From assembly GCA_951406725.2 (NCBI GenBank), contig OX597816.1:70804001-70868000 (forward strand): a stretch of 64,000 bases of DNA, read 5' to 3'. The notes under the pieces were generated by a model. The model was not told the origin of the DNA and ran no database searches. It was given only the letters and a program-made list of their open reading frames with translations. Positions 1 through 58,535 of the stretch are shown here, one piece after another. Numbering within the stretch: position 1 is the first letter of the stretch; every line of letters starts with the position of its first letter. Source of the stretch: Octopus vulgaris. Lineage: Eukaryota. Made by a program: the position numbers and the translations under genes.

Positions 1-144
1 CAAAACAATGGGAATAAATAAGCATCACATTTGGCAGAGAAATTTGAACGATAAAGGGTTAAATACATACTAAAACAACAACAGCAACAATATGGCAAGA
101 TTTGAAAGAGATAAAAAGATGAAGAAATGGAAATGATAACTTAC

Positions 145-465
145 TCCAGCCACTTCCAGAATGTCTTGCTTGGTGATCTGTTCCTCTCCTTTTAATCGTG
201 ACACACTCTGAAGAAGTGTAATAGCACGTCTTAAATCTCCCTCAGATACCTGTATTAATGCTTGCAAAGCATCTTCTTTACAGACCACTTGTTCTTTCTT
301 AGATATGTCTTGTAATCGTTTCAACAATATTTCTAAAGTGAGAGGTTTGAAGCGGAACTTGGCACACCGGGAAGTGATTGGATCAATAATTCTGCTCACA
401 TAGTTACAGATCAAACAAAACCGGGTGGTTTTTGATTCTTTCTCCATGGTTCGTCGCAATGCCGT
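145..465 (-). CDS. RFC4: RFC4 coding exon 6 (SRC motif, sensor 2 GDLRRA)
   Basis: TAG acceptor (AG at 466-467), GTAAGT donor at 139-144; 321 nt encoding TALRRTME...ILEVAG. Confidence 0.93.
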
Positions 466-3311
466 CTAGGAACACAAATAGAAATTAAACAAAATAATAA
501 AGGAGTTGCTGATATTAACACTATGTTCATCTTCATCATCATTAGCATGTAAAAAGCACCATGCGAACGTAGTTGATGCCAGCGTCCCCTGACTGGCTCC
601 TGAGCCGGTGGCACGTAAAAAGCACCATCCAAATGTGGTCGAAGCCAGTACCCACTGACTGGTTCCTGTGCCGGTGGCACATAAAAAGCACCATCCAAAT
701 GTGGTTGAAACCAGTACCCACTGACTGGTTCCTGTGCTGATGGCACGTAAAAAGCACCATCCAAATGTGGTCGAAGCCAGTACCCACTGACTGGTTCCTG
801 TGCCGGTGGCACATAAAAAGCACCATCCAAATGTGGTTGAAACCAGTACCCACTGACTGGTTCCTGTGCTGGTGGCACGTAAAAAGCACCATCCAAATGT
901 GGTCGAAGCCAGTACCCACTGACTGGTTCCTGTGCCGGTGGCACATAAAAAGCACCATCCAAATGTGGTTGAAACCAGTACCCACTGACTGGTTCCTGTG
1001 CCGGTGGCACATAAAAAGCACCATCCAAATGTGGTTGAAACCAGTACCCACTGACTGGTTCCTGTGCCGGTGGCACGTAAAAAGCACCATCCAAATGTGG
1101 TCAAAGCCAGTACCCACTCACTGGCTCCTGTGCCGGTGGCACATTAAAAGCACCATACAAATGTGGTGAAAGCCAGTACCCACTCACAGGCTCCTGTGCT
1201 GATGGCACATAAAAAGCACTATCCAAACATGTTTGATGCTAGAATGCCCTGACTGGCACCCGTGCAGGTAGCACATAAAAGCAACCACTACACTCTCGGA
1301 GTGGTTGGCATTAGGAAGGATATCCAGCTGTAGAAACTTTGCCAGATAAGATCGGAGCCTGGTGCACCCTACTGGCATGCCAGTCCTCAATCAAACCATC
1401 CAACCCATACCAGCATGGAAAATGGATGTTAAACGATAATGATAATGATAATGCTCCAAGCTTGCATGGGTTAGATGGAATTTACTGAGGCAGATTTTCT
1501 GTGACCAAATGTCCTTCCTGTTACCAACCCTCAGCTATTTTCAAGCAAGGTAATATTTTCCTAAGTCTGGACAGTTTCCATGGAAGATTGGAAAGGAATA
1601 ACACTGACTGCATGACAATGATACACATTTCCAACCATCTTGTGATGTCAAGACCAGAAGGCACAAACACATGCACAGGAGTGGCTGTGTGGTAAGTAGC
1701 TTGCTTACCAACCACATGGTTTCGGGTTCAGTCCCACTGCATGGCACCTTGAGCAAGTGTCTTCTACTATATCCTCGGGCCGACCAAAGCCTTGTGAATG
1801 GATTTGGTAGGCAGAAACTGAATGAAGCCCATTGTATATATGTATATGTGTATATATATATGCATGTGTTTGTGTGTCTGTGTTTGTCCCCCCAACATTG
1901 CTTGACAACCGATGCTGGTGTGTTTACGTCCCCGTAACTTAGCGGTTCGGCAAAATAGACCGATAGAATAAGTACTAGGCTTACAAAGAATAATTCCTGG
2001 AGTTGATTAGCTCGACTAAAGGCAGTGCTCCAGCATGGCTGCAGTCAAATGACTGAAACAAGTAAAAGAATATATGATGGGCTTAAAGCCGTTAGTCAGC
2101 CTGGGGCTATAACAGACTACACTTGCACAAGGTATGCAGTAGGACTCAGCCCACAATCTTGTGGTTAGGAAGCAAACCTCTTAGTCACACAGGAATTACT
2201 TGTGTCTATGAGTTTCTATTCTTTTATGTGTTTCAATCATTTGACTGCAGCCATGCTGGAGCACCACCTTTAGTCAAACAAATTGACCCCAGGACTTCTT
2301 TGTAAACCTAGTACTTATTCTATTGGTCTCTTTTGCCGAACCGCTAAATTATGGGGATGTAAACACACCAACATTGGTTGTCAAGCGATGGTGGCAGGTG
2401 GGAGGGGGGAACAAACACAGACACACAAATACATATGTATGTATATATATACATATATATATATATATATAGGTTATAAATTGAGATAGGGGTTGAAAAT
2501 TCAACCCACCATGGGATAATATATATCCAATATACTGCTAGATAGGTACCCAACAAAATTAATACATAGATGTTAAAAATTGTCAAACAATCAGTTCATC
2601 TATTGTATTATATGGGTAAAGGTAATAATATTACCGTAAATTAATACTACAAAATTAGAGAATGGAGAAACATACTTAAATCAGTAAAACATCAACTATC
2701 CGATGATACTCAATCCATACTTTAATACACCATTACATATGAGTAAAGGCAATATATAAAATGAAATGAGATATACAGTAATAGTAAAAAGATAAAGAGA
2801 TATAAGTAAAAAATTTCAAATATAATATGCAAATAAATCAAAAACTGACAGCTGTTTCGGCAGTGAGGGCAGTCATACCTCATTTAACCTATAAGCCATA
2901 AAGGCAGGTATAAATGAGGCATTAACAAGGATGCCCCACGGCCTCTTCAGAGAATTAAATTAAATTTGTTATAATAGTGAAAAATATTATATAATCATAT
3001 ACATATAAATATAAAAATATAAAAATGTAAAATATAAAAACTTATACATCATAATGCTACACTTATATAATATAATACACATTTGTACAAAAAAGGAAGG
3101 TAAACAGAACAAAATAAAACAAAATATATAACAGTGTATATATTAATATTAATAAGTACCGATATTATACATATTTGGCTAATAGTTTTTTTTTTTTTTT
3201 TTTTTTATTTTTTATAAAAAAAGGCTAACACATATGGAGATGAAAAATAATAATTAAAACCATGGTACAGTTCATAAAATTCTAAAGCTATAAAAGTTAA
3301 TAAAAATTAAT

Positions 3312-3353
<42 letters not shown>

Positions 3354-6300
3354 AAAAATAATAATAAAAATAGATACAGTTAAGTTAGCACCAAGTCCAT
3401 CCTTTCAAGATCGAAATGACTATGAGTTAAGAAATGCTGACCACTAGGTAAAGAAAATTTAGATTAATTCGATTGGCTATTGGTTTGAAATTTAAATCAC
3501 AAAAGAAAATTATACGGTTGGTTAGTCAGGGAACGCCAATATTCACACATGCATCTACAGATCAATCGCACATACACACATAGTTATATGTATATACATA
3601 CACTTATACACATACATAATCACAAGCAACAACTAGCACTTAGATAAACAAAAAAAGGGAAGCAACATTTAGTCCTTCAAAATTATAACTGTGCCTCAAT
3701 AACAAAAAAAGAACCATCCATGCATTCCATAAAATATTTAATTTAGATATAAATATATTTTTAAATATCAGTATGTTACTAAGTCAGATAATTATTTCAT
3801 GGGTAACTTAAAATTTATAACACCGGTTTGTTGCAGAGTAAACATACGGTTGTTAGATTTATCGTAAGTTTGTTATGATTTTAAGTACGCTAAATTATAA
3901 AATATAAAATATAAAATATATATTAATTTAAATATTATAAATAAGTCACTTATTAACTTAATAAATATAGTGCCATAATATACCAGTTTAGGCATTAAAA
4001 AATAGAAGGGGAAGTACTAATGTAAACGCTTATGAGAACATCACAGAAATTTTAAATAAATTTTATATTATAAAGACTTAAGATGAAAAGTGATAAAATA
4101 AATAAGAAGGAATAAATACGGTTATACACATAATTATAAGTACAAACCAGTATATATGTATTCATATATTATTAAAATTAAATAAAAATAAATGATAGAT
4201 ATGTATGTATAAAACTACCCCAGTATAAGTAAATAAGTAAAAAAATAAATAGGTAACAAATTAGATGACTTGATATGTATGTAAACATCTACACTTAAAT
4301 AGGCAAATAAATAAATAAATAGAAGACTAGATGCAAAGATTGATAACATTACAATAAAATGGAAAATAAATAAAAAAATAAATAAATAAATAAATAAATA
4401 AATAAAGTGAATATATATGTTATATTGTTGAATGTAAATATGTATGGAAGGATAGTTTAAAGTACAGATCCAGAGGACTATAGATATAAACTAAATATAT
4501 AAGGCTGGTAATAATTATAAAGCAAAATGCATGTAAATGAGAAAATGAAAAAAATGAAAAAGGTTTATCAGTGAATAGCATAAGATACAAATTAAGGTGA
4601 GTACAAAAAGACCAAATATACAATAAAAACCTTCCAAATAAACACATACAAAAAAACCTATAATCTTAACCTAAACCACCAAACTCACAAAAGGCTCTCA
4701 TATATTACATATTATACAATATCATTACATTATCCAGAGCTAGGTATCTAACCAAGATATATATACATACTATGCAATATACTATGCAATATTAGAAAAC
4801 TTCAATAACAACATTAATGAAAAAAACTTCTTTTGTATTCATAGGCTACCGTTCACCTTTTCTAGATTCAAATAGAACTTAGCACTTCCACTATTATTAA
4901 TTTTTTAATTCCCTTCTTTAACTAAATATACCTGTGGTCTTCTATAATTCTAAAGTATACAATTTATAAATTTTATAATTTTATAATTTTTATAGCTACA
5001 TTTGTATAATAATTAATGGATGTGTCTAGTATTATTGGTTTCTTGTTTTTTGTATGTGGGTTTTTGTTTGTTTTTTAAGAGAAATGCAATATGACATAAA
5101 ATAACATATTCATTTTGGTATTTGCCTTGTAATGTGTGATTTTTGAAGTTTTCTAATATTGCATAGTATATTGCATAGTATGTATATATATCTTGGTTAG
5201 ATACCTAGCTCTGGATAATGTAATGATATTGTATAATATGTAATATATGAGAGCCTTTTGTGAGTTTGGTGGGTTTAGGTTAAGATTATAGGTTTTTTGT
5301 ATGTGTTTATTTGGAAGGTTTTTATTGTATATTTGGTCTTTTTGTACTCACCTTAATTTGTATCTTATGCTATTCACTGATAAACCTTTTTCATTTTTTT
5401 CATTTTCTCATTTACATGCATTTTGCTTTATAATTATTACCAGCCTTATATATTTAGTTTATATCTATAGTCCTCTGGATCTGTACTTTAAACTATCCTT
5501 CCATACATATTTACATTCAACAATATAACATATATATTCACTTTATTTATTTATTTATTTTTTTTTATTTTCCATTTTATTGTAATGTTATCAATCTTTG
5601 CATCTAGTCTTCTATTTATTTATTTATTTGCCTATTTAAGTGTAGATGTTTACATACATATCAAGTCATCTAATTTGTTACCTATTTATTTTTTTACTTA
5701 TTTACTTATACTGGGGTAGTTTTATACATACATATCTATCATTTATTTTTATTTAATTTTAATAATATATGAATACATATATACTGGTTTGTACTTATAA
5801 TTATGTGTATAACCGTATTTATTCCTTCTTATTTATTTTATCACTTTTCATCTTAAGTCTTTATAATATAAAATTTATTTAAAATTTCTGTGATGTTCTC
5901 ATAAGCGTTTACATTAGTACTTCCCCTTCTATTTTTTAATGCCTAAACTGGTATATTATGGCACTATATTTATTAAGTTAATAAGTGACTTATTTATAAT
6001 ATTTAAATTAATATATATTTTATATTTTATATTTTATAATTTAGCGTACTTAAAATCATAACAAACTTACGATAAATCTAACAACCGTATGTTTACTCTG
6101 CAACAAACCGGTGTTATAAATTTTAAGTTACCCATGAAATAATTATCTGACTTAGTAACATACTGATATTTAAAAATATATTTATATCTAAATTAAATAT
6201 TTTATGGAATGCATGGATGGTTCTTTTTTTGTTATTGAGGCACAGTTATAATTTTGAAGGACTAAATGGTAGCATAGTTGCTTCCCTTTTTTTGTTTATC

Positions 6301-6586
6301 TAAGTGCTAGTTGTTGCTTGTGATTATGTATGTGTATAAGTGTATGTATATACATATAACTATGTGTGTATGTGCGATTGATCTGTAGATGCGTGTGTGA
6401 ATATTGGCGTTCCCTGACTAACCAACCGTATAATTTTCTTTTGTGATTTAAATTTCAAACCAATAGCCAATCGAATTAATCTAAATTTTCTTTACCTAGT
6501 GGTCAGCATTTCTTAACTCATAGTCATTTCGATCTTGAAAGGATGGACTTGGTGCTAACTTAACTGTATCTATTTTTATTATTATT

Positions 6587-6631
<45 letters not shown>

Positions 6632-8518
6632 AGTAATTTTTATTAACTTTTATAGCTTTAGAATTTTATGAACTGTACCATGGTTTTAATTATTATTTTT
6701 CATCTCCATATGTGTTAGCCTTTTTTTTTATAAAAAATAAAAAAAAAAAAAAAGAAACTATTAGCCAAATATGTATAATATCGGTACTTATTAATATTAA
6801 TATATACACTGTTATATATTTTGTTTTATTTTGTTCTGTTTACCTTCCTTTTTTGTACAAATGTGTATTATATTATATAAGTGTAGCATTATGATGTATA
6901 AGTTTTTATATTTTACATTTTTATATTTTTATATTTATATGTATATGATTATATAATATTTTTCACTATTATAACAAATTTAATTTAATTCTCTGAAGAG
7001 GCCGTGGGGCATCCTTGTTAATGCCTCATTTATACCTGCCTTTATGGCTTATAGGTTAAATGAGGTATGACTGTCCTCACTGCCGAAACAGCTGTCAGTT
7101 TTTGATTTATTTGCATATTATATTTGAAATTTTTTACTTATATCTCTTTATCTTTTTACTATTACTGTATATCTCATTTCATTTTATATATTGCCTTTAC
7201 TCATATGTAATGGTGTATTAAAGTATGGATTGAGTATCATCGGATAGTTGATGTTTTACTGATTTAAGTATGTTTCTCCATTCTCTAATTTTGTAGTATA
7301 TATATATATATATACCTGTCTTCATCTTTTGTTTTTCTGTAAATTCCAACTATATATATCTGTGTGTGTACGACAGGCTTCTTTCAGTTTCCGTCTATTA
7401 TATCCACTCACAAGGCTTTGGTTGGTCTGAGGCTATAGTAGAAGACACTTGCCCAAGGCACCACGCAGTGGGACTGAACCCAGAACCATGTGGTTGGGAA
7501 GCAAGCTTCTTACCACACAGCCACAGGGCCAGCAATTCAGAGTAGAATTCTGTAAAGTTTGGGCAGACTGCACACTTCAACATATGTTAAGTGAAGCCGA
7601 CAATGCAGGAGGATGAAAAACAAAATTAACTTCAGTGCATGTTTGTGTCTCCTTGTCTTGATGCTGTGTATGAACTGTAAACAATCATGACTGTCATGTA
7701 AGTGGTGTTGTTCATTTGCTATCTGCCATGAAAACATGCCTGACCATAGGTAACAGGAAAAGTATCTGGCCATAGAAAATCTACTGCAACGAATTACACC
7801 TGAGCCAACCAACCGTGAAAAATTGGATGCTAAGATGATGATGATGATGATAATGAAAAATATGTAATATATTTAAGCGTTTGGCATAAGAGAAGTATCA
7901 AACAGTGAAAAGATATATTTCATGTAAATATTTAAATTTGAAGAAATATGAAACCTACATAAGATTTGAAAAAGACATCCAAAGAAATTTTTTTGTTTGG
8001 ACTAAACTAAAAATGTCAAGAGCAAAATGGAAAAAATCTCACCTGAGCTGCTAGTGTCATAGAGTCAGCTTCATCTAAGATGATTATCTTAAAAGGAGGA
8101 CAAGGTTTTCCACTAAAGAAAAATAAAACAAATGATTCAAGATAATAAACTCTGTGATAGGTGTATGTGTGTGTATACACACACACTAGCAAGGCATCCT
8201 GGCATTGCCCAGGTGTTATGGCCTACAGCCAAATTGTATTATTTGTTTCTTTCTGTTGGGCAGAATCGGCACACGAGGTGTGTAAAGCAAAAACATTTAG
8301 AATGACAGCTTAGACTAGAATGAAATCTTAACATTGCCCCCAAAATGATCTAGACTTACGCAGGAGTGGCTGTGTGGTAAGTAGCTTGCTTACCAACCAC
8401 ATGGTCCCAGGTTCAGTCCCACTGTGTGGCACCTTGGGCAAGTGTCTTCTGCTATAGCCCCGGGCTGACCAATACCATGTGAGTGGATTTGGTAGACGGA
8501 AACTAAAAGAAGCCTGTC

Positions 8519-8576
<58 letters not shown>

Positions 8577-11500
8577 CTGTGTTTGTCCCCCTAGCATTGC
8601 TTGACAACCAATGCTGGTGTGTTTACATCCCCGTCACTTAGCGGTTCGGCAAAAGAGACTGATAGAATAAGTACTGGGCTTACAAAGAATAAGTCCCGGA
8701 GGCGATTTGCTCGACTAAAGGCAGTGCTCCAGCATGGCTGCAGTCAAGTGACTGACACAAGTAAAAGAGTAAAGAGTATATAACGAATTGGATGATGTGT
8801 GAGGATGTACAGGTATCCGTGTTGCAGAAAGTAAGGTACACGGAAAGAAAGCTGCTTCATTGTAAAAAGCATCATCTCTGTAAATGTTTGGGCAGACTGC
8901 ACACTTCAACATATGTTAAGTGAAGCTGACAATGCTTCTGGGTAAACTATGTTTTACGTAAGTCCAGTACTGGTAGAATAAATATACAAGTCATCTGCAC
9001 TGCTAACTCGAGAGCATGCGGTATATAGTTGTCCAGGAGAAAAGCAGGGTATTTGTAAATTGAGACCCCCAATTTTTAAAGTTTGACCATGGGTTTTGTT
9101 GATTATCATAGCAATGCACAACTGCATTGGGAACTGAAGGTGCTTAAATTGAAGTGGCACATTTGAGGGAATAAGGGGCATGCATGGAATGTATTCAATC
9201 TCTCCTCGATGGCAGTTGGCAATAATGGTTGCTTCAAGGACATGACTTGTCATTGCAGTTACAGTCAATTTTGTACCATTGCATAGTCATGGTGGATCCA
9301 AATTCCTCAAGAGCATGATAGGTGCACCTTTCTTTAGGAACAATTTATGTAGTGGCAGTCCTGTGGGTTGTATTGAGTTGAGAACTTCAACTGGATACCC
9401 AACTGTGGCATGTTTGTCAATGGTAGTATCAGTGGAGACAAACCTTGAAGCATCTCCAGGTAGAATGTAGAGGAGTTCACGGATTACTTTATCAATGCTT
9501 CCATTTCATGGTGCTACAATAGCTCTCTCTGCAAACCATGCTGTTTTTGAATTTGTCTTGCAATGTGGGAAATACCTTTTCGTTAAGCTCAGCCAATGTA
9601 GACACCATGTGCCCACATTCTATTCTATTCTACTCAAGGCACAAGGCCCACAGATTTTTGGGGAGTGGGGGGACAGTCAATTAGAGTGATCCCAGTTTGC
9701 AAAAGGATGAAAGGCAAAATTGACCATGGCAGAATTTGAACTCAGAATGTAAAGACCATGTGACCACATTGCAGTACATGCTATTGCAGGGTGTTATTCA
9801 ATGGTAAGGCATTATTTCCAATTTGTAGAAGTTCACAAGAGAATTCTTCGGGTAAGGAGTCATTGTAGAGATGAGCTCGCTTTTTCTTGCTTAATGAAAG
9901 CTGACAAACAACCCTTCACAGAGGTAAAGACTTCAGACACGCATAGATCTCGTCAGCTTGTGTACCCCATAGTATAACTGGCAATATTTGACGGAAATCC
10001 CCTGCAAGGACAACAGTCAAGCCCCGCCATAATGGCTGTATTGTTTCCCTTAGTGACCTATCTAGGGCTTCTAGTCCACTATGGTGTGCCATTGTGCATT
10101 CATCCCAGACAATAAGTGTAGTAAGTAGCTTGTTCCCGACCACATGGTTCTGGGTTCAGTCCCACTCTGTGGCACCTTGGGCAAGTGTCTTCTATAGCCT
10201 CGGGCTGACCAAAGCTTTGTGAGTGGATTTGGTAGACGGAAACTAAAAGAAACCCATTGTATATATATATATATATGTTTGTGCATCTGTGTTTGTCCAC
10301 CCACCATCACTTGACAACTGAAGTTGGTGTGTTTATGTCCCCGTAACTTAGCAGTTCAGCAAAGAAGACCACACACTTCTTTGTAGATGTAGCCGATGTT
10401 ACTGGGGCTTGGCTGGAAAGTTTTGCTTCAACTTCCAGGTTCACCTGACTTTTGCACCTTCAGATTTCCACCTGTTTCAGTCAACTTTGAAGAGGATATG
10501 AAAATTCACCTGGAAGAGTTCCTTGCCAGTAAAAACAAGAAACTCTTTGAGCAGGAAATAATGGAATTGTCCACAAGATGGCAAACGATACTGAAAGTAA
10601 ATGGTAATTATTTCATTGATCAAGGCAGTGATCTGGTAGTATTTCGTGTGCTTTTGCAATTGGAGTTCAAATTCTGCTGAGGTTGAGTATGTATTAAATC
10701 CTTTCGGGGTCAATTGAAAATATATCAGCTGAAAACTGGGGGTTGATGTAATTGATTCCCTGCCACCCAAAAATTGCTGGCCTTGTGCCAAAATTTGAAA
10801 GCAATTATCTCATTGATTGAATAAATCATATTATGTTTAAAACATGTGTCTTATTGTGTCTGGGGAGAGTCATTTTCTTTTTGTGCCTTATAATGTAACA
10901 CACTCACCGGTAAAATTTCCACGTTTTTCTTATTTTTATTGTCCTAAAATTTTTGTTGCGTCTTGCAACCTTCTCAATAGTTTTGACTCTGGTGAGTGTG
11001 TTACATTATAAGGCAAAAAAAGAAAATGACTCTCTCCAGACACAATAGAATATGCTTCAACACACGAACTCATATAAAGAATCTTGCAAACCAAATCCAA
11101 AAACGAAACATGTGTCTTATTTTCCCTTAAGAAAACAAATTAACTTACTTTTTGGCCAACTCAATAAATCCTCAGACTACTACAGTACCACCATATCACA
11201 CAACTACACCACCATGCCAGCCTACCACTACACTACCTCAACAACCCACTACCACAACATCACCACAGATCCCACCACTACACAATCACTACAACATAAC
11301 ATAACCACATGACACACCATCGCTATACTGCAACACTGCACCACCACATTATGCTATATTCGAGCGTGATCGTTACCAGCGTCGCCTTACTGGCACTTGT
11401 GCCCGTGCTAGTAGGATGCCAAGAGCACCATCCGAGCATGAGCGTTGCCAGAGCAGCCAGCTGGCTTCCGTGCCAGATGCACGTAAAAGGGGCACCATTC

Positions 11501-14500
11501 GAGCATGATCATTACCAACATCGCCTTACTGGAACCTGTGCTGGTGGCATGTGTAAAAGAATTTGAGCGAGGTCGTTGCCAGTACCGCCTGACTGGCCCC
11601 CATGCCGGTGGCACATAAAAAGCACCCACTACACTCTCGGAGTGGTTGGCTTTAGGAAGGGCATCCAGCTGTAGAAACTCTGCCAAATCAAGATTGGAGC
11701 CTGGTGCAGCCATCTGGTTTGCCAGTCCTCAGTCAAAATCGTCCAACCCATGCTAGCATGGAAAGCGGACGTTAAACAATGATGATGACTACCACATCAC
11801 ATTAGAACAACTTGTTGTCATTACACAACATTACACCACTACACTGCTGCTATATCGCACAACCCTACACAACACACCATTCCTTCCTTAAAAACACCAT
11901 CTCAATATGCTGCCGCTGCCATTATTGTTACCATCATCACAACGCTTGTTTCAGTACTTATATATCAAAAACCAAATGCAAGTGCACGAATGCACATCAT
12001 TCTGAATCTGTCTACTTACTCAGGTCGAACAGCGGAGGCACTAATCTGAGCAAATTTCTTCACTTTGTTTCGAATGACATCAATTCCTCGTTCATCGGAA
12101 GAGTTCAGTTCCAAGACACGGCTGCGGTACATATCATGTCTAAACAAAATAAAGAAAAAGGGAAAAAAAATTTTTTCTTTTAAATAGGAATCTTTAAAAG
12201 GGTAAAACTAGGGGAAATAAAAAGAAACTTCTATCTATGCAATTAAGAGGTAATAAATCTGTTCACATACATACCCAAACAATTCTCTGGCTGCTGCAAG
12301 TATTGTGGATGTTTTACCAGTACCAGGTGGTCCGTAGAACAACAGATTTGGCAACTGTCAAATGAGACAGGAGACTGAGAGATAGTGAAAAGTATACATA
12401 AGAATATATATATGAAAGTTACATGGCAAACCAGCTGGTGCCACATAAAAAGCACCCAGTACACTCTGTAAAGTAGTCTTAGCAGTGATTCTCTCTCTCC
12501 AATGCCCAGTCTCTTTTACAATCTCTTGAACAAGCCTCAAATTGTGTAGGTCTTTAACTCAATGAGTCCAAGACTGAATATGTAAACAAGTGCCTGTCCA
12601 ACAGTGATTTCATCATCCATACTCTCAACAATACGCCCTTAAATATGGTTTCTGATTACAAATATCTTGGGTCATACATATCATCATCTGAAAAAGATTT
12701 TCTAACGAGAAAGGGTATGGCCTGGTCAGCCTGTGATGATATGCATAAGATCTGGTCATCAAATTTAAGTAGAGATTTCAAACTTAAAATCTTCAAAGCC
12801 ACAGTCGAACCAATTCTACTATATGGCTCAGAAACCTGGATGTTATCAAAGAAGCTTGAGAGGTGGTTGGATGGAACTTACACTCGCCTCCTTATGAGAG
12901 CTCAAAATCTCTCGTGGAAGCATCATCCAACCAAAATACAAATATATGGGAAACTACCACCTGTATCATCTCTTGTGAAAGGTAGAAGAGTCCAGTTTGC
13001 TGGACATTGTTGTAGAGCTGAAAACGAGGTAATTTCTACTCTTCTCCTCTGGAAGCCATCTGCTCGCGATACCAGAGGGCGTACACTCTCCTACCCTGAT
13101 GTAATCTCCAGGGATACAGGCATCCAGCAACAGGACCTCCGTAATGCTAGGATGGACCATGAAGTCTGGTGTAACATAGTAAATTCCATTGTCTTGACCA
13201 CAGTCAAACAATGGTGATGAAAGCAGTCGGCATTAGGAAGGGCATCCAGACACAGAAACTATACCAAATAAGACAATAGGAACCTGGTGTAGCTCTCAGG
13301 TCTGTCAGCTCCTGTCAAACAATCCAACCCATAGAAAACAGACATTAAAAGATTATGAAGATGTGTACGTGTGTATGTATATTATCTCTGTAGCAAGACA
13401 CCTCTGCTTGTCCCTCTATCATATTTTAGTCTCCAAGACCTGGTATTAGGCCATCTCCCCACTATATATATGAATGGTTTTGCATAGACATCAAAGGGGA
13501 TGTAACATCAGAAGATGGTTTGTTTGAGTGGTTAATGAAAGCTATACATACAACAATAAGTAAATAGACACAAACACATCATGCCTATCAATGGTGTATG
13601 AAACATTAAGTATGATACATAGATGGCATGTTTCAGTAATCTGCAATTTAAATGATGATACATCAAAGGAGAACTAAACCATTTTTAAAAATAAAGATAG
13701 ATAAAGAAACTACTATACAAAGTAATTGATGTAAATATGACTGACCAAAAGAAGGCTGCAAGCTAGCAGAACTGTTAAATGCTGGACAAAATGTTTAGCG
13801 GCATTTTGTCCTTCTTCATGTTCTAAGTTCAAATTCCACTAAGGTTGACTTTTCCTTTCATCCATCTGGGGTCGATAGAATAAGTACCAGCTGAACACTG
13901 AAGTCGATATAATAGACTTAACCCTTCCCCTGAAATTACTGGTCTTGGGCGAGAATTTGAAACCAATGAGTGATCAAAATCCTTGAATACAGTGCCCCAG
14001 GATAGCCACTGACAAAGGACTGAAACCGGTGAAAGAGCAAAAGTATTAATGAGTAAAAGAATAAACTAGAACACTTACATCAGAACCCTGAAGAGATTTC
14101 TTTAGAACGTGCACAACTTCATCTTGGTAAGCAACATCATCAATTTGTCGAGGACGACTACACAGTAGAAACAATAAAAAAAAATAAACATTAATGACAA
14201 ACGTCCCAGGTGAGGCTCATATCAGCCCTAAAAAAGCTGTGGTTAAGGTATACAAGACTTGAAGGAGTGCCAGCCCTAGAAAAGTGACAAACGTCCCAGG
14301 TGAGTCTCATATCAGCCCTAAAAGAGCTGTGGTTAAGGTGTACAAGACTTGAAGGAGTGCTGGCCCCAGACAAGTGACAAATGTCCCAGGTGAGGCTCAT
14401 ATCAGCCCTAAAAGAGCTGTGATTAAGGTATACAAGACTTGAAGGAGTGCTGGCCCTAGACAAGTGACAAACGTCCCAGGTGAGTCTCATATCAGCCCTA

Positions 14501-15537
14501 AAAGAGCTGTGGTTAAGGTATACAAGACTTGAAGGAGTGCTGGCCCCAGACAAGTGTCAAACAGGCCAAATGTTATGTGGACATACGCTGATATCACATG
14601 AATTCAGTTTCCTAGTTTTGGGGTTAAAAATACAAACCCTGTAATTCAAGGATAAGCTTCGGAGGGCTATAGATCAGCAGAATAAATCATAAATGTAATG
14701 GCAAAAGGCAATGGAAAACCACTGTTATATCTTTTCTCATGAAAAATCTCGAATCTTCAGATTTCGTTTTGGAGACCAATGATTGCCAACACCTGAAGGC
14801 AAAGCATGAAGAGAAGACAGGGAGATTTCTACCTCATCAACAGATCACCAGTTACAAGCATACAAATCTGTTGTGTCCTTTCTGTACCTTTCACTGTACT
14901 ATAAAAAAATTATTTATTTGATTGTCAAACCTTCATTCACTTGCATTCTACAACCAATAACACACATATGTGTTGTTACTACTACATAGTCTGTTTCTTT
15001 GTACTAGCAAGCTTTGTACCATCCCCAGCATAAGTTTCTCTAATAGCTTGCTTTCACAATTCCTTACATTTCATCTTAAACCTCAAAGTTCATACTATTA
15101 AAAAAAAAATGCCCTCCAGTTGATCCTTGGATAATGTGGCAAGTATTCAGGCTGTCTCCAATCTAAGGATAATTTCTTCTCTTTAGTCACAGTGGCCCTG
15201 GAAAGAGTCATGAGCACTGCTTCTTTTCCAGACGAGGGAGAGAGGGAGAGCAAATAAAAAATGACACTTTCATCTTGGTTTTTTGACAGACTGATATGCT
15301 CTTAATCTTTCCATGACACACACCAACACAAACTTATTTTGTTTCAATAATATTAAAACCTTATATGTAATAATTTAAGTGGATGCTTACCCTTTAAAAA
15401 ACAATGTTAGGATTAGATTTAAACACTTACTATTTCTCTACCCAGGGTATATGTGCTTCTTTGGTCGTTTCTGTTGATACAGGCTTCTCTTTTCTCTTGA
15501 TGAAGCCAGAACTTCCAGGCTTGAGAAAAGCATGCAT
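145..15537 (-). CDS. RFC4: Replication factor C subunit 4 (RFC37-like), 3'-partial multi-exon gene: complement(join(145..465,8043..8112,12020..12139,12275..12354,14079..14157,15431..15537)), 259 codons in window
   Basis: Spliced translation MHAFLKPG...[21 protein letters not shown]...[27 protein letters not shown]...[20 protein letters not shown]...[65 protein letters not shown]...EGDLRRAIT. Shows RFC boxes, Walker A, DEAD Walker B and SRC. All introns are GT-AG and phases are consistent. Confidence 0.95.
545..1290. repeat. 66-bp minisatellite, about 11 units, expanded inside a family B retroposon
   Basis: Unit GCCGGTGGCACATAAAAAGCACCATCCAAATGTGGTTGAAACCAGTACCCACTGACTGGTTCCTGT; explains the 22-aa periodic ORFs. 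Confidence 0.93.
2845..2952 (-). ncRNA. Type I hammerhead ribozyme motif (mirror copy, sense to RFC4 pre-mRNA)
   Basis: Reverse complement of 6991-7098 with one substitution in stem II. Confidence 0.72.
6991..7098 (+). ncRNA. Type I hammerhead ribozyme motif with extended stem II
   Basis: CU-CUGAAGA-GGCCGUGGGGCA...UGUCCUCACUGCC-GAAA-CAGCUG-UC|AG. Palindromic stem III; internal hairpin AUGCCUCAUUUA(U)ACCU/AGGUUAAAUGAGGUAU. Confidence 0.72.
8043..8112 (-). CDS. RFC4: RFC4 coding exon 5 (Walker B)
   Basis: Encodes [23 protein letters not shown]; TAG acceptor, GTGAG donor. Confidence 0.93.
8186..10115 (-). mobile_element. Helitron remnant: degenerate Pif1-type helicase plus 3' terminus
   Basis: Peptides [24 protein letters not shown] and [21 protein letters not shown]...[10 protein letters not shown]. 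Subterminal hairpin CCTGGGCAATGCCAGG followed by CTAG|T at 8186. Interrupted by SINEs. Confidence 0.88.
10396..10622 (+). mobile_element. Mariner transposase C-terminal remnant
   Basis: LGWKVL..PGSPDF (decayed YSPDL) and [21 protein letters not shown]. Confidence 0.75.
10850..11110. repeat. Second fold-back copy of the 51.1-51.4 kb family
   Basis: Arms about 10852-10912 and 10990-11048; motif at 10944-10980 minus with core UUGAGAA and G12 changed to A. Confidence 0.75.
12020..12139 (-). CDS. RFC4: RFC4 coding exon 4
   Basis: Encodes [39 protein letters not shown]; GTAAGT donor. Confidence 0.93.
12275..12354 (-). CDS. RFC4: RFC4 coding exon 3 (Walker A)
   Basis: Encodes [27 protein letters not shown]; CAG acceptor, GTATGT donor. 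Confidence 0.93.
12560..13220 (+). mobile_element. 5'-truncated RTE-clade LINE (RT C-terminal region)
   Basis: [26 protein letters not shown] and RRVQFAGHC motifs; nested in a SINE-like repeat. Confidence 0.88.
14079..14157 (-). CDS. RFC4: RFC4 coding exon 2
   Basis: Encodes [26 protein letters not shown]; TAG acceptor, GTAAGT donor. Confidence 0.92.
14196..14556. repeat. 90-bp minisatellite, 4 units
   Basis: Units start at 14196, 14286, 14376 and 14466. Confidence 0.93.
15431..15537 (-). CDS. RFC4: RFC4 first coding exon
   Basis: ATG at 15537-15535; encodes [35 protein letters not shown](Y). A CAG acceptor at 15551-15553 implies an upstream non-coding exon. Confidence 0.9.
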
Positions 15538-17335: not shown

Positions 17336-17990
17336 GGCATTCTTTCGATATAACTCGACAAAATCAAAACATTTCACTTCGGGTATTTCCGTGGAAGCAA
17401 ATGACAGTTCGAATTCTGTTTTCTGCTTGGAAATTTGCGGATTTTACATGCACACATGAAACAGGTTAGAACAAATATGCAAGGCGCAGGAGTGGCTGTG
17501 TGGTAAGTAGCTTGCTAACCAACCACATGGCTCCGGGTTCAGTCCCACTGCGTGGCATCTTGGGTAAGTGTCTTCTGCTATAGCCCCGGGCCGACCAATG
17601 CCTTGTGAGTGGATTTGGTAGACGGAAACTGAAAGAAGCCTGTTGTATATATGTATATATATATGTATGTGTGTGTGTGTTTGTCCCCCTAGCATTGCTT
17701 GACATCCAATGCTGGTGTGTTTACGTCCCCGTCACTTAGCGGTTCGGCAAAAGAGACCGATAGAATAAGTACTGGGCTTACAAAGAATAAGTCCCGGGGT
17801 CGATTTGCTCGACTAAAGGCGGTGCTCCAGCATGGCCGCAGTCAAATGACTGAAACAAGTAAAAGAGTAAAGAGTAAAAGGCTTTTTTTCTTCAAGTTTA
17901 AAATGAGACATTGCTGGCATAATTTCGTTATATCTATACTCCACAACTCAAGGAAATACCCAAAGTGAAATGTTTTGATTTTGTCGAGTT
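17336..17990. mobile_element. Second copy of the same MITE, opposite orientation, split by a SINE at about 17484-17880
   Basis: Same TIR; internal sequence is the reverse complement of 19095-19350. Confidence 0.8.
17484..17880 (+). mobile_element. tRNA-derived SINE, family A, full length. Other copies at about 1673-2070 +, 8359-8778 +, 10118-10370 +, 26655-27078 -, 37388-37700 -, 41700-42307 -, 48756-49075 +, 49330-49485 -, 50615-50921 +
   Basis: A box TGGCTGTGTGG, B box GGTTCAGTCC, CORE-like CTTGGG(C/T)AAGTG, internal (TA)n/(TG)n, GTAAAAGA tail. Confidence 0.88.
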
Positions 17991-18610
17991 GATCAGCCCT
18001 GATAAATTAGATATTTTTTTCCTTTCTCATACATAGTTCATTATTCGATGCATCCTTTTTATTTTAAAGACAACAGCGACTTGAGGGAGATTTTGGTTAC
18101 CACTATTTCTACGTCTAGTGATAAGTTATAGTGGCGTTGACTCGTTACTATGTACTAGTAGTTTATGCTGAACCTTGGATCAGCAAGTCAGCCTCCATTT
18201 AGTAATTCTACCTGTTAGAAACAGCAGCCAAATCTTCATCAAATTGAACCGTACTGTCTTTCCAAAAAAGCGCCGGAACACAAATACAAACACTTAATAG
18301 AATTGTCGCGACTGTGACACCTTTGATCACTGTAAGTTTGCTTAATCGGAGTAATTTACAGCTAAACAACAACAAAATAACAATAATCTAAGCGTTGGTA
18401 TATCTATAAATTTTAATTCAGTAACACTGTTGTGGTGCACCTGAGCACTGTATACAATAATTTCAATATTATTATTGAAATTATATTTCAATACACGAAA
18501 ATATAACATTTATACACACTTAAACGAAAGTTATATTGTTCTACAGAATAACTATTTCAACTTATTATATCAAACAACTTATTAATAAAAGGTGCGCGAT
18601 ATATATTTAC

Positions 18611-18760
18611 CTGATCAATAAGTAAATTATTACAAGAGTGTGATATAATATAAATATATTCAGACAACAATCAAGATTATTATTATACTGAATACACTTT
18701 AAACAGAGTTCCCGCCATTTACTAAATAATGGTAAACAGCTCTTTGAGCATGCGTGACCG
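18611..18760 (-). other. RFC4: Putative non-coding first exon of RFC4 (5' boundary approximate)
   Basis: CAG|GTAAAT donor at 18611/18610, next to the promoter-motif cluster. Confidence 0.5.
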
Positions 18761-18840
18761 GAACACGAAATTTGACATTTATTAGCGGAAGTTAAACAAA
18801 AGTTGTTCCCCTTTGTTTTCACTACGACGGAAGTTGTTTA
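18700..18840. promoter_or_regulatory. Candidate bidirectional RFC4/GTF2F2 promoter
   Basis: CpG-containing, repeat-free stretch between divergent genes. ETS-type CCGGAA at 18758 and CGGAAGT at 18786 and 18828; overlapping E2F-like TTCCCGCC and YY1-like CCGCCATTT at 18709-18720. Confidence 0.6.
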
Positions 18841-18979
18841 GTCCTTTTTGTGGACATTGTTTCTTTGAGTAATTCTATTGAAAAACTATATTGAAAGTGT
18901 GTTTATTTTAAAAAGAATTCTTTACATCCAGCATTGTTCTGGATATAAGTGTTTGTAGATACATACATATCAACTAGTT

Positions 18980-19051
18980 ATGAGTGAAATTGGACATGAA
19001 ACCAAAGAGGTCGATTTAACGGCTGCTGGCCGAGGTGTATGGTTAGTTAAA
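18980..19051 (+). CDS. GTF2F2: GTF2F2 coding exon 1
   Basis: Encodes MSEIGHETKEVDLTAAGRGVWLVK; GTAAGT donor. Confidence 0.92.
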
Positions 19052-22000
19052 GTAAGTAAAACTCCTTCCATAAACTATGCTTATATATATATATGGCATT
19101 CTTTCGATATAACTCGATAAAATCAAAACATTTCACTTTGGGTATTTCCGTGGGTTGTGGAGTATAGATATAACATGTCTCATTTTAAACTTGAATGAAA
19201 AAAAATCCTTGCATATTTGATCTTACCTGTTTAATGTGTGTATGTAAAATCCGCATATTTCCAAGCACATAACAATCGAACTCATTTGCTTCCACGGAAA
19301 TACTCGAAGTGAAATGTTTTGATTTTGTCGAGTTATATCGAAAGAATGCCCCTATATATGTATACACACACATATATAAGTATCTAAGTATCCATAAATC
19401 AAAAAGATTAGCTAGAATGTGCCTCTTGGGGTGAGACATCTTTTGCTCTGTTTGTAATGCAAATTTCAAACAGCTAGCACATCTAGAAAGTGGTCAAGGT
19501 TTGAACAGGAGCAGAGACCATTTATTTGACCATTCAAAAGTTGGATCATTTAGTTTAACATATCTGTTTTGTTCATCTCTGGTGAGCAAACTCCCGAACG
19601 CCTAGATTGGGTTTTTAACCCCTAAACTCATGTGAAATCGGATGAAATGGATCTATAATACATGAAGGGCATCCAGTTGTAGAAAATCTACCTAAAAAAA
19701 ATAGTCTGACCTATGCAAGCATAGAAAAATTATGATAAATCCTCGGTTCTTGTATGTAACGATATTGTTTAGCATGTCAAGTGCGATGTTATTGTGATTG
19801 AGGACAAAATTTTAACATCGTCGAACTTCAATATTAATGCTGTTGACCCTTCAGCGTGACTTTCATAGCTGTATGGTTTATTATTTATTATTATTTTCAG
19901 GTTCCCAAGTATTTGTCGGAGAAATGGAGGAAGGCTCCCTGTAGTTGTGAGGTGGGAAAACTGAAGATCACTAGATCAAGGTAAGTTGACGAACTTGCTT
20001 TTCTTACTATGGTGATGAGTAAAATAGATCATCAATCGGGTGGAGCCTTAGACTGATCTACTTGACACATGAGTGATAGTTTGCCATAATCTTAAGAGTG
20101 ACAGCAAATTGCTTTGCAGTATTTAACTCTGCCATTTTATGTTCTGAATTCATATTTTGCCAAGAAAGTGTTGGCATGGCTTATTGGTTAAAAAAGTTCT
20201 CGTCCCAACCACATTGTTTCAAGTTTAATATTACAGTGTGGCACCTTGGCCAAGTGTTTTTTTTTTTAGTATAGACAGGTGCTGATCCAAACTTTGTAAA
20301 GCGATTTGATAGATGTAAACTAACAAAAGCCTTTTGTGTATGTGTTTGTTTACATACAATTGCACCTCACTAAATATCAGCTACAATGTTGTCATTTCGC
20401 CTATCAACAAATTGCCTACTGTCTTTGCACCTTCAGAGATGTGTAAAACAAGATTCTTGTAAAACAAATAAGGGTTAGCAACTGGGAGGCCACCCAGCTG
20501 TAAACCAATACTTCAATAACACATTTATCTAACCCTTAGGGGATCCACTTATGATTTTACTGTTAAAATTTGTGTGATAAATTTGTTATACCTCACCAAT
20601 ACACAAAATATTTTAACAGTTTTTTGTTGTTTTTTTTTTTTTATACAATTCCCAATAATGTTCAATTATATCCAAAATATATTACGATTTTTTAAACATC
20701 GAATGGCTATGACGGCCCATTTAAGTAAACTAAGAAGTGAAGTGGTCCAAAGGCAAAAAAATAGTTGAGAACAACTGATCTACCCCATGCTAGTATGCAG
20801 AAAAGAGACATAAAAATAAACAAATGTATTGAATTTACCTTTCATCTTCGAGTGTCGGTGAAATATTAATGTCAGTATCTGTAATTGTTAGCCTCTTTAA
20901 AATTGGAGGGTCTTGAACATGTGTTAGAAACCGTCACTATCATTGTGATGGTTGTTAGCATACACTTTCAGTTTGATGTCTAAGAATGCTTAATCTAGCA
21001 CAGTGAGTGGTTTTGCAGATTGTCTGAGTGATAACCTAAATCCCTTGTGATATTTAGTTTCATTCTAAGCTCAAATTCCATTGAGGTCAATAAAATAAAT
21101 ACCTGTTAATCTCCAGAAGATTGTGGTCGTGTTAGAAATTTGTTTTTAATGGCATGATTATTGTTGTTATTTGTGTGTGTTGTTGTTTCTGGGCCCTTTA
21201 GAAATGTTCTACCTTTGATAGATCGACAAGAAACATTAATATAATCTAAATTAAACTACAGGTTTCCCTTGTGTAATCAAGTATGATTTGGTAGTGTATA
21301 CCATGCTTTCACTAATTGCTTTAGGTACCTGTGTAGTATGTAAACATAAGCACCTTCCAAGTCCTTGATTCATTGAGAATGGGACAGCTAGAGAGAGAGA
21401 GTGAAATGAGGCTGCATTTGACTACTAGTAAAGAATTCCAACCACGTTTCGTGGTCTGCTACTTCAACAGCTCCTTTATAAGATCCAGAGGCTAAAGACA
21501 TCATCAGGAGGAACTACATCTGGTTTCGGCCCCTACTCTTCTACTGTTTTCAACATGGTGGGGCCCCCTCCTTTCGGAAGTGTTTTCAGCTCTGGTGTTG
21601 AGTACATTTTTCTTTGGTCTTTTGTTCTTTGGTTTCTTCAATGCAGCATCAACAAATGTCAGCAGGCGAATGACCACCCTGCCAAATTTCTCTTCAATAG
21701 GCTCCAGCAACCAGCACCTGTTAACTACCATGTGACACAATCTAAGCTTGAACCGACCAATGGGGAGGAAGAGTGTGTAGTTTTGGCCTGCGCCCTCTCT
21801 ACCTTCCAACAGAGTTGTGTTAGCTTCAATTCCTGCTGCAGGAGCCAGCTAGCTGTTTGGTGGTACAAGCCTTTGAACCAGCAAATGTGAACCTTCAAAA
21901 ATGAAGTTGGTCTCATCAGAACTTGATCTCATCATCATCATCATTTAGCGTCCGCTTTCCATGCTAGCATGGGTTGGACGGGTCAACTGGGGTCTGTGAA

Positions 22001-36800: not shown

Positions 36801-39800
36801 AGCAGTGTTCTGTGAAAACATTTTCGGTCATGAAGAAATGTTTATTTATTTGGAAACTATTGAGAATTGGTAACACGAACAGCATCCAGCCATACAGTCT
36901 TCTTTAATAAGCTCCACCTGACCCATTCAGGCATAAAAAAGTGGATGCTAAAGTAATAATAATAATAATAATGATGATGATGAGTAAGGACTTCTTATTG
37001 TTGTATTTGTAGAGGAAATTTGGTTGATTTGTAGACGTTCTATTTGACTATCTTGTGTTTCATTTCTTTATTTTCAGACAAACTTGCAATCGAGGGCAAA
37101 GTGATCCAACGTGCAGAATGTCGACCTGTGGCCAATGACACATACATGAAACTGAAACGGTTGGTTCCAGGTTCAATATCTATTTCATCCTGTGAAAAGA
37201 CATTGGGTCGTAGTAGGGTGGAACTGAAAGATTGAATGTGACCTGTGGGTCACTTTTTCAGATGTTATTCAAAAGAAATGGTGATATCCCATATCACATA
37301 TTTACCTAACTCGTAGTGGGGACGAAGAGAAAGATTGAATGTGACCCGTGGGTCACATTTTCAGATGTTATTCAAAAGAAATGGTGACCCCAGGACTTAT
37401 TCTTTGGAAGCCTAGTACTTAATCTATCGGTCTCTTTTGCTGAACCACTAAGTTACGGGAACATAAACACACCAGCATCTGTTAAGCAATGTTGGGGGGA
37501 GGACAAACATATACACACACGTACATATATATATATATGTACGACGGGCTCTTTTCAGTTTCTATCTACCAAATCCACTCACAAGGCTTTGGTCAGCCCT
37601 AGGCTATAGTAGAAGATACTTGACCAAGGTGCCATGCATCGGGACTGAGCCCGGAACCATGTAGTTGGTAAGCAAGCTACTTACCACACAGCCACTCCTA
37701 TGTTGGTTTGCGAAATTAAGATGCAAATTCCCAAGTGCTCCACAGACACACGTACTCTTAACGTAGTTCTTAGGAAGCTTCAGTGTAACACAGAATGGTC
37801 CTTTAAATTATGAGTACAACTCATTTTTGCCAGCTGAGTGGACTCGAGCAATATGAAATAAAGTGTCTTGCTCAAGCAGGGTTGGCCTTAAACCAATTGG
37901 ATCGATTGCTCCCAATCGGGCCCCACACTCAAGGAGGCCACATCCTATACTATGAAATTTTATGATGGTGGTCTCCCTGAAGTTTAAAAAAATCTATATA
38001 GAAATGCTCTTTAAAAAAACATACTTTTTACACTTTAGTGATGCAAGATACCAAAAGATAAACCCATTCATGCAAAATTGCCAGTCAGCCTTGCTCGTAT
38101 TTTTAGTGTAAGGGTCAGTTGTATGTATGCATGTATGTATGTGAATATTTGGGAGTGTTTATGGGTATGTTGGGGTAAAATATTTGTGTGTGTGATAGAG
38201 TATGTATGTGATTGTTTAAGTGTATGATGAATTATTAATTTGCTTTTTATGTATATCTCTTTTAGCTTAACATCCTGCAACAGATAAGCGTTTCTTTGGG
38301 ATCTTGTTAAATTTCTTTTCAATTTTTGCCAGAATATTTTTAAAAGGTGTAGTGTAGTTTAGATGTGGTTTCGCTTACTGATGGTGAAAATTTTTGGTAA
38401 ATTTATAGTTTAACACCCAACTCAATTTCAGTGGAAAATAATGCTTTTTCCTCATTTTTTTTTTTCCTTGTGCTATCAACTAATCTAATCTCCTAATATG
38501 CTGCAAATAATTTTTTCAACAGAAATCGGAGCAGGGTGGGGTAGAGTGGACTTCGGAAATTCACCCCCTCACGTCACCCAATTGGGCCCCACACTTCCTA
38601 AGGCCGGCCCTATGCTCAAGGACATAATGGACTGCCAGGAATTGAACTCACAACCTTTATGATCATGAGCTGGATACCCTAACCACAAAGCTATACACCT
38701 TCAGAAACTTACATAAATAAGCTAAGAGATTATGTATTGAAGATGCTTGCAAAAATTTTCAGTTCTCAAATATCAGATTTTTTCCCCCTAATTAATTTTG
38801 TGAATTTAATTCTCAACTTCTTGAAATTTTCTCCCTTTTACTCTGAGTATCACTCACAATTAACTACTAGATTTTTTTTTTTTCTGCGACTAAGAGGGGA
38901 ATTTTAATTGATTAAGGGTTTCATTGCATACATGATTCAGTACAGAATTCTATAATGTTCTTATAGATTTTATTGTGTTGAATAATTTAATCTGAAACTT
39001 TACCAAATCATCATCTTTACTACTTCATCTCAACAGCAGTAGTAATAGGATGAATGGAGTGAAATTTGAATCCATGACTACTTTGTGATCAATAGTCTAG
39101 TCCTTTCACCCTACAATCTCATTAGGTTCCATTCAATGAAAAAGCTTTTAACATGCCAAGATTAAAGCCTGAGGCAAGCTTTGAACTAGGTGGCAACAGA
39201 GCAAACTCTGATCAAGTTAAGACCAGGGAAAGAGACTAGCTTTGATCAAGTTGAGATTGAGGCAAGAGAAAAACTTTGTTCAAGTTGAGATTAGTGCAAA
39301 AGATAAGCTTTGATCAAGTTGAGATTAGAGCAAGAGAAAAACTTTGTTCAAGTTGAGATTAGTGCAAAAGATAAGCTTTTGTCAAGTTGAGATTAGAGCA
39401 AGAGATAATCTTTGGTCAAGTTGAGATTAGAGCAAGAGATAATCTTTGGTCAAGTTGAGATTAGAGCAAGAGATAATCTTTGGTCAAGTTGAGATTAGTG
39501 CAAAAGATAAGCTTTGATCAAGTTGAGATTAGAGCAAATGATAATCTTTGGTCAAGTTGAAATAAAGAGGCAAGCTTTGCATTTTAATTTTCTATTTCAA
39601 AGTCATTTTTGTATGGTTAATGCTTTCAGGGTAGACATGAATGTCACAACCCCTCATTGCATCCTTAAAAATATGTCTAGTCATAAGTTATTGACTCTAT
39701 TCATAATTAACTAAAACAGTCACATGAATTTAAATTAATATACACTAGAACTTTTGACAACATATTTCACATAAAGAAGAGTTGTTTGGGCATAACTGCA

Positions 39801-50129: not shown

Positions 50130-50304
50130 TATATATATATATATATATAGGGCGTTATTGTCAAACGTCCCCTTTTCCGTCAAATAATTTGTGTGTGAAT
50201 CGAAGAAAATTTTGCTTTTATTATTTGTATTTCAAAGGTATATAAAGAGATTTCTCCGATAAATGTCACTTGACCGAAATATTGAGTAAAAATTAAAAGC
50301 AAGC

Positions 50305-50386
50305 CGACGAGGATGAGATTCGAACTCACGCGGGAACATCCCAATGGATTAGCAGTCCATCGCCTTAACCACTCGGCCACCTCGTC
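50305..50386 (-). tRNA. tRNA-Ser(GCU), copy 1
   Basis: GACGAGGTGGCCGAGTGGTTAAGGCGATGGACTGCTAATCCATTGGGATGTTCCCGCGTGAGTTCGAATCTCATCCTCGTCG; 82 nt, long variable arm, G73, downstream T-run. Confidence 0.96.
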
Positions 50387-51084
50387 ACTACGGGTGGTGA
50401 AGAATATTTTAATAATATACCGTTTCATTCGTGGCACGGAAGGCTCTCAGAAAATTCCTTATGATAAGCATCAGTAAGAAAGTAACTCACTTATGACAAA
50501 GAATTGCCAAGAGAAACCAGCTTCCTATTTCTTAATAGTTAATGGAATCGAGAATTATTTCAAGAAAAGACTGTATCTAATAGATTACGAGTTTTTATTA
50601 AAGATAGGTAAATAGGTGCAGGAATGGTTGTGTGGTAAGAAGCTTGCTTCCCAACCACACAGTTCCAAGTTCAGTGAGTGGACTTGGTAGACGAAAACTG
50701 AAAGAAGCCCGTCGTATATATATATATGTGTGTGTCTGTGTCCTTCCATCGCTTTGACAACCGATGTTGGTGTGCTTGCGTCCCCGTAACTTAGCGGCTC
50801 GGTAAAAGAGATCGACAGAATAAGTACTAGGCTAACAAAGAATAAGTCCTGGAGTCGATTTCTTCGACTAAAGGCAGTGCTCCAGCATGGCCGCAGTCAA
50901 ATGACTGAAACAAATAAAAGAATCCGAATACCAGCAAATGCACTCGTCCTTTGTACAGTGTGATTTATTGTAATGGTGCACTCCTGTGGACGGTTTAATT
51001 TGAATTAGCCTGCAGTTAAAAGTCGTTTCAAGTTGATAAGCGTAAAATGTATAATTACCATTTTCGTTAGTAGTTTATTTATTA

Positions 51085-53024: not shown

Positions 53025-53106
53025 CGACGAGGATGAGATTCGAACTCACGCGGGAACATCCCAATGGATTAGCAGTCCATCGCCTTAACCACTCGGCCAC
53101 CTCGTC
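53025..53106 (-). tRNA. tRNA-Ser(GCU), copy 2
   Basis: Identical to copy 1. Confidence 0.96.
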
Positions 53107-56367: not shown

Positions 56368-56377
56368 TCTACAATTA

Positions 56378-58455: not shown

Positions 58456-58535
<80 letters not shown>

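Follow-up and report, generated by a model that had tools for sequence, protein, structure and literature searches.

A head-to-head Penelope-like insertion in an intron of octopus RFC4 and the regular pairing of two ends across its family

Introduction

The question raised by this locus is how an intron of the RFC4 gene of Octopus vulgaris came to hold two mirror-image arms of more than 2 kb, each carrying a hammerhead ribozyme motif, and whether the gene has any use for them. The locus lies in a 64,000-nt stretch of the genome (the window: GenBank assembly GCA_951406725.2, contig OX597816.1, positions 70,804,001 to 70,868,000, forward strand), in which an original prediction, made from the letters alone, had described a fold-back at 2644-7299. 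The arms are copies of a Penelope-like element (PLE) whose open reading frame (ORF) is intact elsewhere in the genome, and their insertion has split a short interspersed element (SINE). Across the family, one arm of such a pair ends at a site A and the other at a site B, and both arms of one insertion carry a common haplotype. We consider it probable that the structure is a 5'-truncated head-to-head PLE insertion into a (TA)n run in which both nicked target strands primed one RNA, at sites 172 nt apart.

The RFC4 locus is an ordinary product of a known retrotransposon class in a known insertion form. Inverted copies, tails at one end only (PMC8557442, PMC3846280) and hammerheads in pseudo-long terminal repeats (pLTRs) are already published PLE traits. 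What is new is the regularity of the A+B ends and the common arm haplotype. Our literature search, which reached few subscription papers and not the early Penelope structure papers, returned no count of the A+B rule or of haplotype sharing between arms, and no tie of either to double priming. PMC8557442 lists the origin of PLE inverted structures among its open questions, and a family with an intact ORF, two sharp ends and many young copies is suited to testing models by counting. The end rule and the common haplotypes narrow the mechanistic options, which we regard as a modest lead.

Results

Anatomy of the insertion

Alignment of the inverted arms, 2644-4805 and 5143-7299, gave 2139 identical columns out of 2174 (98.4% identity), with 6 substitutions and 29 gap columns, and the 9-nt indel described earlier was present at 3665 / 6269-6277. 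The predicted arms therefore stand, but the outer limit does not, as the left arm extends 172 nt further, to 2472. The complete insertion (2472-7299, 4,828 bp) splits one SINE at a (TA)n run and has SINE halves on both sides; because it sits in a TA repeat, a target-site duplication is unreadable. Its parts and immediate flanks are as follows.

2217..2471, minus strand: 3' part of the target SINE, ending in (TA)n at the left junction; corresponds to positions 170-413 of the SINE copy at 8359-8778 (83%)
2472..4805, minus strand: left arm, a 5'-truncated PLE copy ending at site B (3' untranslated region [UTR], hammerhead, tail), sense in RFC4 pre-mRNA
2472..2643, minus strand: 172-nt tail between ends A and B, left arm only, matching unit positions 5430-5601
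4806..7299, plus strand: right arm, a longer 5'-truncated PLE copy ending at site A and containing the 'spacer'; joined bluntly to the left arm at 4805/4806
4807..4875, plus strand: final 22 codons of the PLE ORF with the stop codon, where the endonuclease region ends; 22/22 identical to residues 926-947 of the ORF of copy L051
7300..7350, no strand: (TA)n target remnant and a 36-nt stretch, the latter with weak 22-nt matches only, in 2 fetched loci
7351..7524, minus strand: 5' part of the same target SINE, positions 8-181 of the copy at 8359-8778 (85%)

The sequence between the arms is the overhang of the longer, right-arm copy. A minus-strand peptide in it had been likened to the start of a GIY-YIG region; its best match to the family ORF had an E value of 0.43, the true ORF end lies on the plus strand, and the peptide is therefore the antisense of the element's 3' UTR. 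An 11-residue frame in the tail was also considered as a PLE N-terminal motif and rejected, as the ORF starts ~138 nt past end B. The tail itself is predicted to fold into several hairpins (-39.8 kcal/mol, a value without a shuffle control). The 36-nt stretch (7315-7350) lies between two TA runs and is found neither in the reference SINE copy nor in the element unit.

Each arm has 1 difference from copy L042 in 1,480-1,704 unmasked positions, and by this measure of divergence the insertion is very young. Its duplex (2.2 kb) is the fourth longest among 37 pairs, which range from 0.18 to 3.7 kb.

The element is a Hydra-clade Penelope-like retrotransposon

A genome search with 6960-7299 yielded 1600 candidates, and all 40 copies scored were 98-100% identical; 32 surrounding regions were then examined. 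The unit is 5,610 bp long, as given by the tandem period at L031 and L051, and ~2.4 kb of it is 3' UTR. Partial tandems, which form pLTRs, occur at L031, L051, L101 and L105. The proposed Penelope-like origin was borne out, since the arm sequence is joined elsewhere in the genome to an ORF with a reverse transcriptase (RT) and a GIY-YIG endonuclease (EN). This frame is intact at L051 (960 codons, 947 aa from Met, with the GIY-YIG domain C-terminal) and carries one frameshift at L031. The L051 protein contains RWR, DKT, YRDD, CxCx5C, VYQ..YIG, CxxC and CxH motifs. A Pfam search of the ORF gave no match; its C-terminal part was nearest to GIY-YIG clusters in Atlas, at 0.95-0.96. There are 75 homologues, some labelled reverse transcriptase and one from Argonauta, with a typical length of ~700 aa. 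Two Asn-rich inserts (23% Asn, residues 500-640 and 710-810) explain the excess length of the octopus protein. In-frame N-rich segments between RT and EN are also found in Adineta vaga Penelope ORFs (PMC3846280), but here they occur in a Hydra-clade element that is amplifying massively.

The single RT and GIY-YIG ORF, the tandems, 42 inverted pairs and an optional tail are those of an EN+ PLE. Within this group the diagnostic motifs point to the Hydra clade, whose members are PLEs with a C-terminal EN (Craig et al. 2021, PMC8557442). In this clade RT is followed by GIY-YIG, DKG is replaced by DKT, a CxCx5C linker is present, CxxC/CxH surround the E and N residues without CCHH, a hammerhead lies near the 3' end and targets are (TA)n. 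In the octopus protein we found SDKT in the N-terminal region together with the C-terminal EN, a CNCRNKNKC linker, and CSLC..E..N..CIH with no CCHH (by eye); insertion is into (TA)n, with the hammerhead near the 3' end. The clade has an RWK motif and no conserved GxKF/Y; at the RWK position the octopus protein has RWR, and among 8 aligned homologues the position reads RWR, RWK or RWE, with one truncated there. The RT blocks also look alike by eye in Hydra-1_Obim of Octopus bimaculoides (PMC8557442), a protein compared in part. On these motifs the element is assigned to the Hydra clade as a new, recently amplified family.

Several traits set it apart from the clade as described. Hydra-clade elements are generally <3 kb (Hydra-1_Obim, 2,507 bp; PMC8557442), in contrast to the 5.6-kb octopus unit, a difference for which the long 3' UTR and the Asn-rich inserts account. 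The ~2.4-kb 3' UTR, the 947-aa ORF compared with ~700 in homologues, RWR in place of RWK, a clear pLTR, the tail, and >1,300 copies, many of them near-identical, are likewise unlike the published description. Older or unrelated Hydra-like ORF remnants adjoin some young copies (L051:433-3104, L039:4784-6338, L035:576-1607), which suggests that several Hydra families exist and that the same TA-rich sites have been used more than once.

Paired arms end at A and B and share a haplotype

The hammerhead pattern had 1,368 exact matches genome-wide and 0 in the reversed control. Along C1, the first 100 matches include 19 that begin a head-to-head pair within 12 kb and 6 that are same-strand neighbours; none is arranged tail-to-tail. 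Extrapolation from these 19 gives ~260 two-core fold-backs in the genome (95% interval 12-28% of matches). Counted by cluster, the head-to-head geometry occurs in 19/75 hammerhead clusters, or about a quarter of hammerhead-bearing insertions.

We scored the arm ends of 42 pairs, namely 37 from the main survey plus L097, L039, L048, L075 and L088; the end at L094 was scored as A. In 41 of the 42 head-to-head pairs one arm ends at A and the other at B, with no AA and no BB pair. In the exception, L097, the partner of the B arm stops 40 nt before reaching A. The same exception is the only one when the C1 pairs are taken in order (18/19 A+B). If each arm chose its end freely, the chance of 41 mixed pairs would be ~5e-13. 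Single arms end at A or at B, so each site works alone. At L039 and L075 the B arm lies entirely within the tail and is thus no copy of the A arm. The A arm reaches farther 5' in 14/36 pairs (including the RFC4 locus) and the B arm in 21/36, with one tie. The outer arm ends examined all run into a (TA)n-type repeat.

The arms of one insertion also carry a common haplotype. For this comparison the old pair L101 (~80% identity) was omitted, leaving 36 pairs, and L043, a duplicate of L051, was dropped. Only 12 of 865 shared polymorphic sites were discordant between the arms of one insertion; when B arms were permuted among insertions, a mean of 25% were discordant and 0/2000 permutations were as low. 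The RFC4 locus is discordant at 1 of its 53 shared sites (2869/7074), a G-C versus G-U change in stem II of the hammerhead that segregates 31:19 in the other arms.

How the two-armed insertion arose

In the sequence of events that we propose, the endonuclease would cut both strands of the TA run. One target 3' end would prime reverse transcription of an element RNA at A, and the other would prime the same RNA at B. The two cDNAs would stop at different points and then be joined in the middle, leaving mirror-image arms, a spacer formed by the overhang of the longer arm, and a tail on one side. With the motif 203 nt upstream of A, each arm comes to carry a hammerhead. The A+B rule and the common haplotype, taken together with in vitro data on the anole PLE PAc Poseidon (Anolis; Frangieh et al. 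2024, PMC11167929), make one RNA primed twice the simplest reading. In that system both strands of AT-rich DNA are cut and extended, RT starts at two internal sites bounding the tail, and the pLTR carries a hammerhead. PAc Poseidon belongs to another clade and its hammerhead overlaps the ORF start, unlike the octopus motif, and the sections of that account consulted here do not tie its pair of start sites to insertions of inverted form. Published tandem and inverted PLE insertions resemble the present ones in that a 5'-truncated inverted copy abuts the 5' end (PMC8557442, PMC3846280).

Two target nicks that prime two cDNAs are also the basis of L1 twin priming, which gives rise to 5' inversions. 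There the second priming occurs at a variable upstream site and the two parts do not overlap, whereas the octopus PLE uses two fixed sites and its arms duplicate up to 3.7 kb. That a dimeric RT-endonuclease sitting at the tail would prime one strand at A and the other at B from a single RNA, and that this would account for PLE fold-backs generally, is a tentative extension in which our doubt slightly outweighs our belief.

A number of observations weigh against double priming of one RNA. The mechanism is read from genomic scars, with no intermediate observed. Discordant sites are present in 7/36 pairs (among them L032 with 3/55 and L034 with 4/48, besides the RFC4 locus), and each such case has to be put down to a second template, to template switching or to mutation recurring at the site; in L032 and L034 the sites cluster in the 5' parts of the arms, where a template switch or a second RNA may have been involved. 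Two RNAs of one source locus, or later gene conversion between arms, would also give common haplotypes, and two such RNAs bound asymmetrically by the dimer are a possible alternative. Selection of loci by similarity to the hammerhead end biased the arm lengths; the 5' ends of paired arms are correlated (rho 0.49, p 0.003), to which we give no weight because of this bias and a truncation hotspot. At many junctions, fillers or small palindromes take the place of clean microhomology, which suits self-priming too. Clean overlaps of 0-6 nt were seen in 9/35 scored pairs (0 nt at the RFC4 locus; 2 pairs unscorable), and we make no claim of microhomology because the remaining pairs are confounded by fillers and microsatellites. 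Lastly, the two-site start was demonstrated for a tail of 30-40 nt (PMC11167929), the length found in described PLE insertions, and the tail here is 172 nt.

An unlikely alternative is that the same element produced a self-primed, folded-back intermediate that already held both arms, and that the endonuclease trimmed it at A and B during integration. Self-priming has been proposed for head-to-head PLE repeats (PMC3846280), as has endonuclease resolution for the tail (PMC8557442), and a folded intermediate predicts both one haplotype per insertion, as measured, and junction palindromes, which are present at L103 and L108. Simple self-copying, however, cannot yield the A arms that are longer at the 5' end, that of the RFC4 locus included, nor the B arms confined to the tail at L039 and L075, and the tail ends match RT start sites in vitro (PMC11167929). 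An origin as an assembly or chimeric-read artefact can be set aside with near certainty. The arms are similar enough to invite it, and among the short assembled contigs of four runs covering 6400-8300 no piece crosses both arms or the junction (depth was high on the element and the SINE, where depths are not copy numbers). Against it, as the original prediction had argued from the arm differences, the arms differ by the 9-nt deletion (0/20 other arms) and at a family-polymorphic site. In addition, the mirror ends exactly at element end A without running into host DNA, only one arm is tailed, the SINE halves flank the insertion in register, and 41 other loci have the same design. Double priming of a single RNA remains our preferred account of the fold-back. 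If it is correct, this family, whose tail measures 172 nt and whose near-identical fold-backs run to hundreds, would offer a natural system for testing PLE integration. It would also be a recent source of ~260 long hairpins as potential ADAR substrates, in an animal with heavy editing.

Non-element sequence lies between the arms of two pairs, at L035:3840-5163 and L094:2522-3614. The L035 insert contains a 323-codon frame that may be like that of a long interspersed element (LINE).

The hammerhead motif

A hammerhead core of the form CUGAAGA...GAAA-CAGCUG-UC had been predicted on each arm and was recovered at 6993-7096 (plus strand) and 2950-2847 (minus strand), the sole matches to the strict pattern in the window.

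2829..2968, minus strand: type I hammerhead motif, sense in RFC4 pre-mRNA; core start 2950, predicted cut 3' of 2847
6975..7114, plus strand: type I hammerhead motif, antisense in RFC4 pre-mRNA; core start 6993, predicted cut 3' of C7096

In this motif, proximal stem I has 2 bp, stem III is palindromic (8 nt) and stem II is 86 nt long, and the predicted cut site lies 203 nt before end A and ~510 nt before the ATG. An Rfam scan gave no hammerhead match at the gathering threshold or at E<=10, probably because of the long stem II. As in metazoan PLE hammerheads (Cervera and de la Pena 2014, PMC4209133), the motif is of type I with a G10.1-C11.1 pair, a short palindromic helix III, a 2-bp proximal helix I like that of D. 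virilis, and dual motifs on opposite strands. Its helix II exceeds the 6-8 bp described there several-fold, and there is no bulged base at 9/10.1; the corresponding stem of Hydra-1_Obim has 7 bp and an 8-nt loop (PMC8557442).

Among 23 variants drawn from several subfamilies, pairing holds in 95% of cells, compared with 27-43% in slid controls. Six pairs changed on both sides, a number reached by 40/500 shuffles, and these contain 26 both-side changed cells, reached by 0/500. Stem II is 99% paired and has 5 pairs in which both sides changed, and distal stem I is 75% paired; stem III (2 bp, palindromic) is fixed by the search pattern and uninformative. Because these related sequences are also the source of the structure, the covariation is support and not proof. 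The motif appears to be maintained by selection on the element RNA. In the computation, an inactive fold in which the core pairs with stem III is 5.2 kcal/mol more stable than the active fold, which agrees with reports that motifs of this kind require a dimer or the protein. Related monomeric PLE hammerheads gave no cleavage (PMC4209133), and cleavage by a PLE hammerhead has been found to depend on PLE protein (PMC11167929); by analogy, a likely role is dimeric or protein-assisted processing of the element RNA.

Consequences for RFC4

The host gene had been named correctly as RFC4. It is encoded on the minus strand, and the insertion occupies most of one intron.

130..467, minus strand: RFC4 coding exon downstream of the host intron; match to human RFC4, E 2e-40; AG acceptor at 468
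468..8040, minus strand: RFC4 intron of 7,573 nt, 4,828 nt of which are the insertion; flanking exon frames contiguous, GT..AG ends
8041..8117, minus strand: RFC4 coding exon upstream of the host intron, by translation; GT donor at 8040

Distances from the arms to the RFC4 splice sites are 0.74 kb and 2.0 kb. A duplex of >2 kb in the pre-mRNA (2.16 kb) is physically expected, as proposed, with the antisense hammerhead transcribed first. The original prediction went further and suggested that this antisense arm could mask the sense ribozyme and let an essential gene tolerate it; this reading, under which the fold-back would matter for RFC4 expression, we judge very improbable. The order of transcription fits such masking, the computed duplex is far more stable than the hammerhead self-fold (-261.8 vs -46.6 kcal/mol), and octopus has very high hyper-editing and much predicted double-stranded RNA (dsRNA) (PMC5625713). 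However, the geometry is the default of the family wherever it lands (19/75 clusters), the active fold is disfavoured by the 5.2 kcal/mol noted above, and the insertion is extremely young, as its single difference per arm from L042 indicates. Splicing is also possible on discontinuous nascent RNA (PMC5126111). As single PLE hammerheads either do not cleave (PMC4209133) or need protein (PMC11167929), related motifs barely act alone and masking need not be invoked.

Masking of the sense hammerhead is plausible as a side effect of the modelled duplex. Most likely the insert is a tolerated passenger that would form a hairpin of 2.16 kb and be removed together with the intron at splicing. A-to-I editing of the arms is likely in so heavily edited an animal; if transcribed, the fold-backs of the family would add dsRNA that drives hyper-editing, as reported for a lizard Penelope (PMC5625713).

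Other features of the window

Elsewhere in the same RFC4 intron, a 66-bp unit is repeated in tandem ~11 times at 545-1280; it is related to a dispersed repeat found at 11358-11788. Other tandem repeats occur at 14195-14562 (90-bp unit) and 39192-39563 (~69-bp unit), and clustered short inverted and direct repeats of 60-150 nt, 90-99% identical, lie at 17336-19350. A dispersed tandem array of 9 tRNA-Ser(GCU) genes with duplicated spacers is located on the minus strand at 50303-62844.

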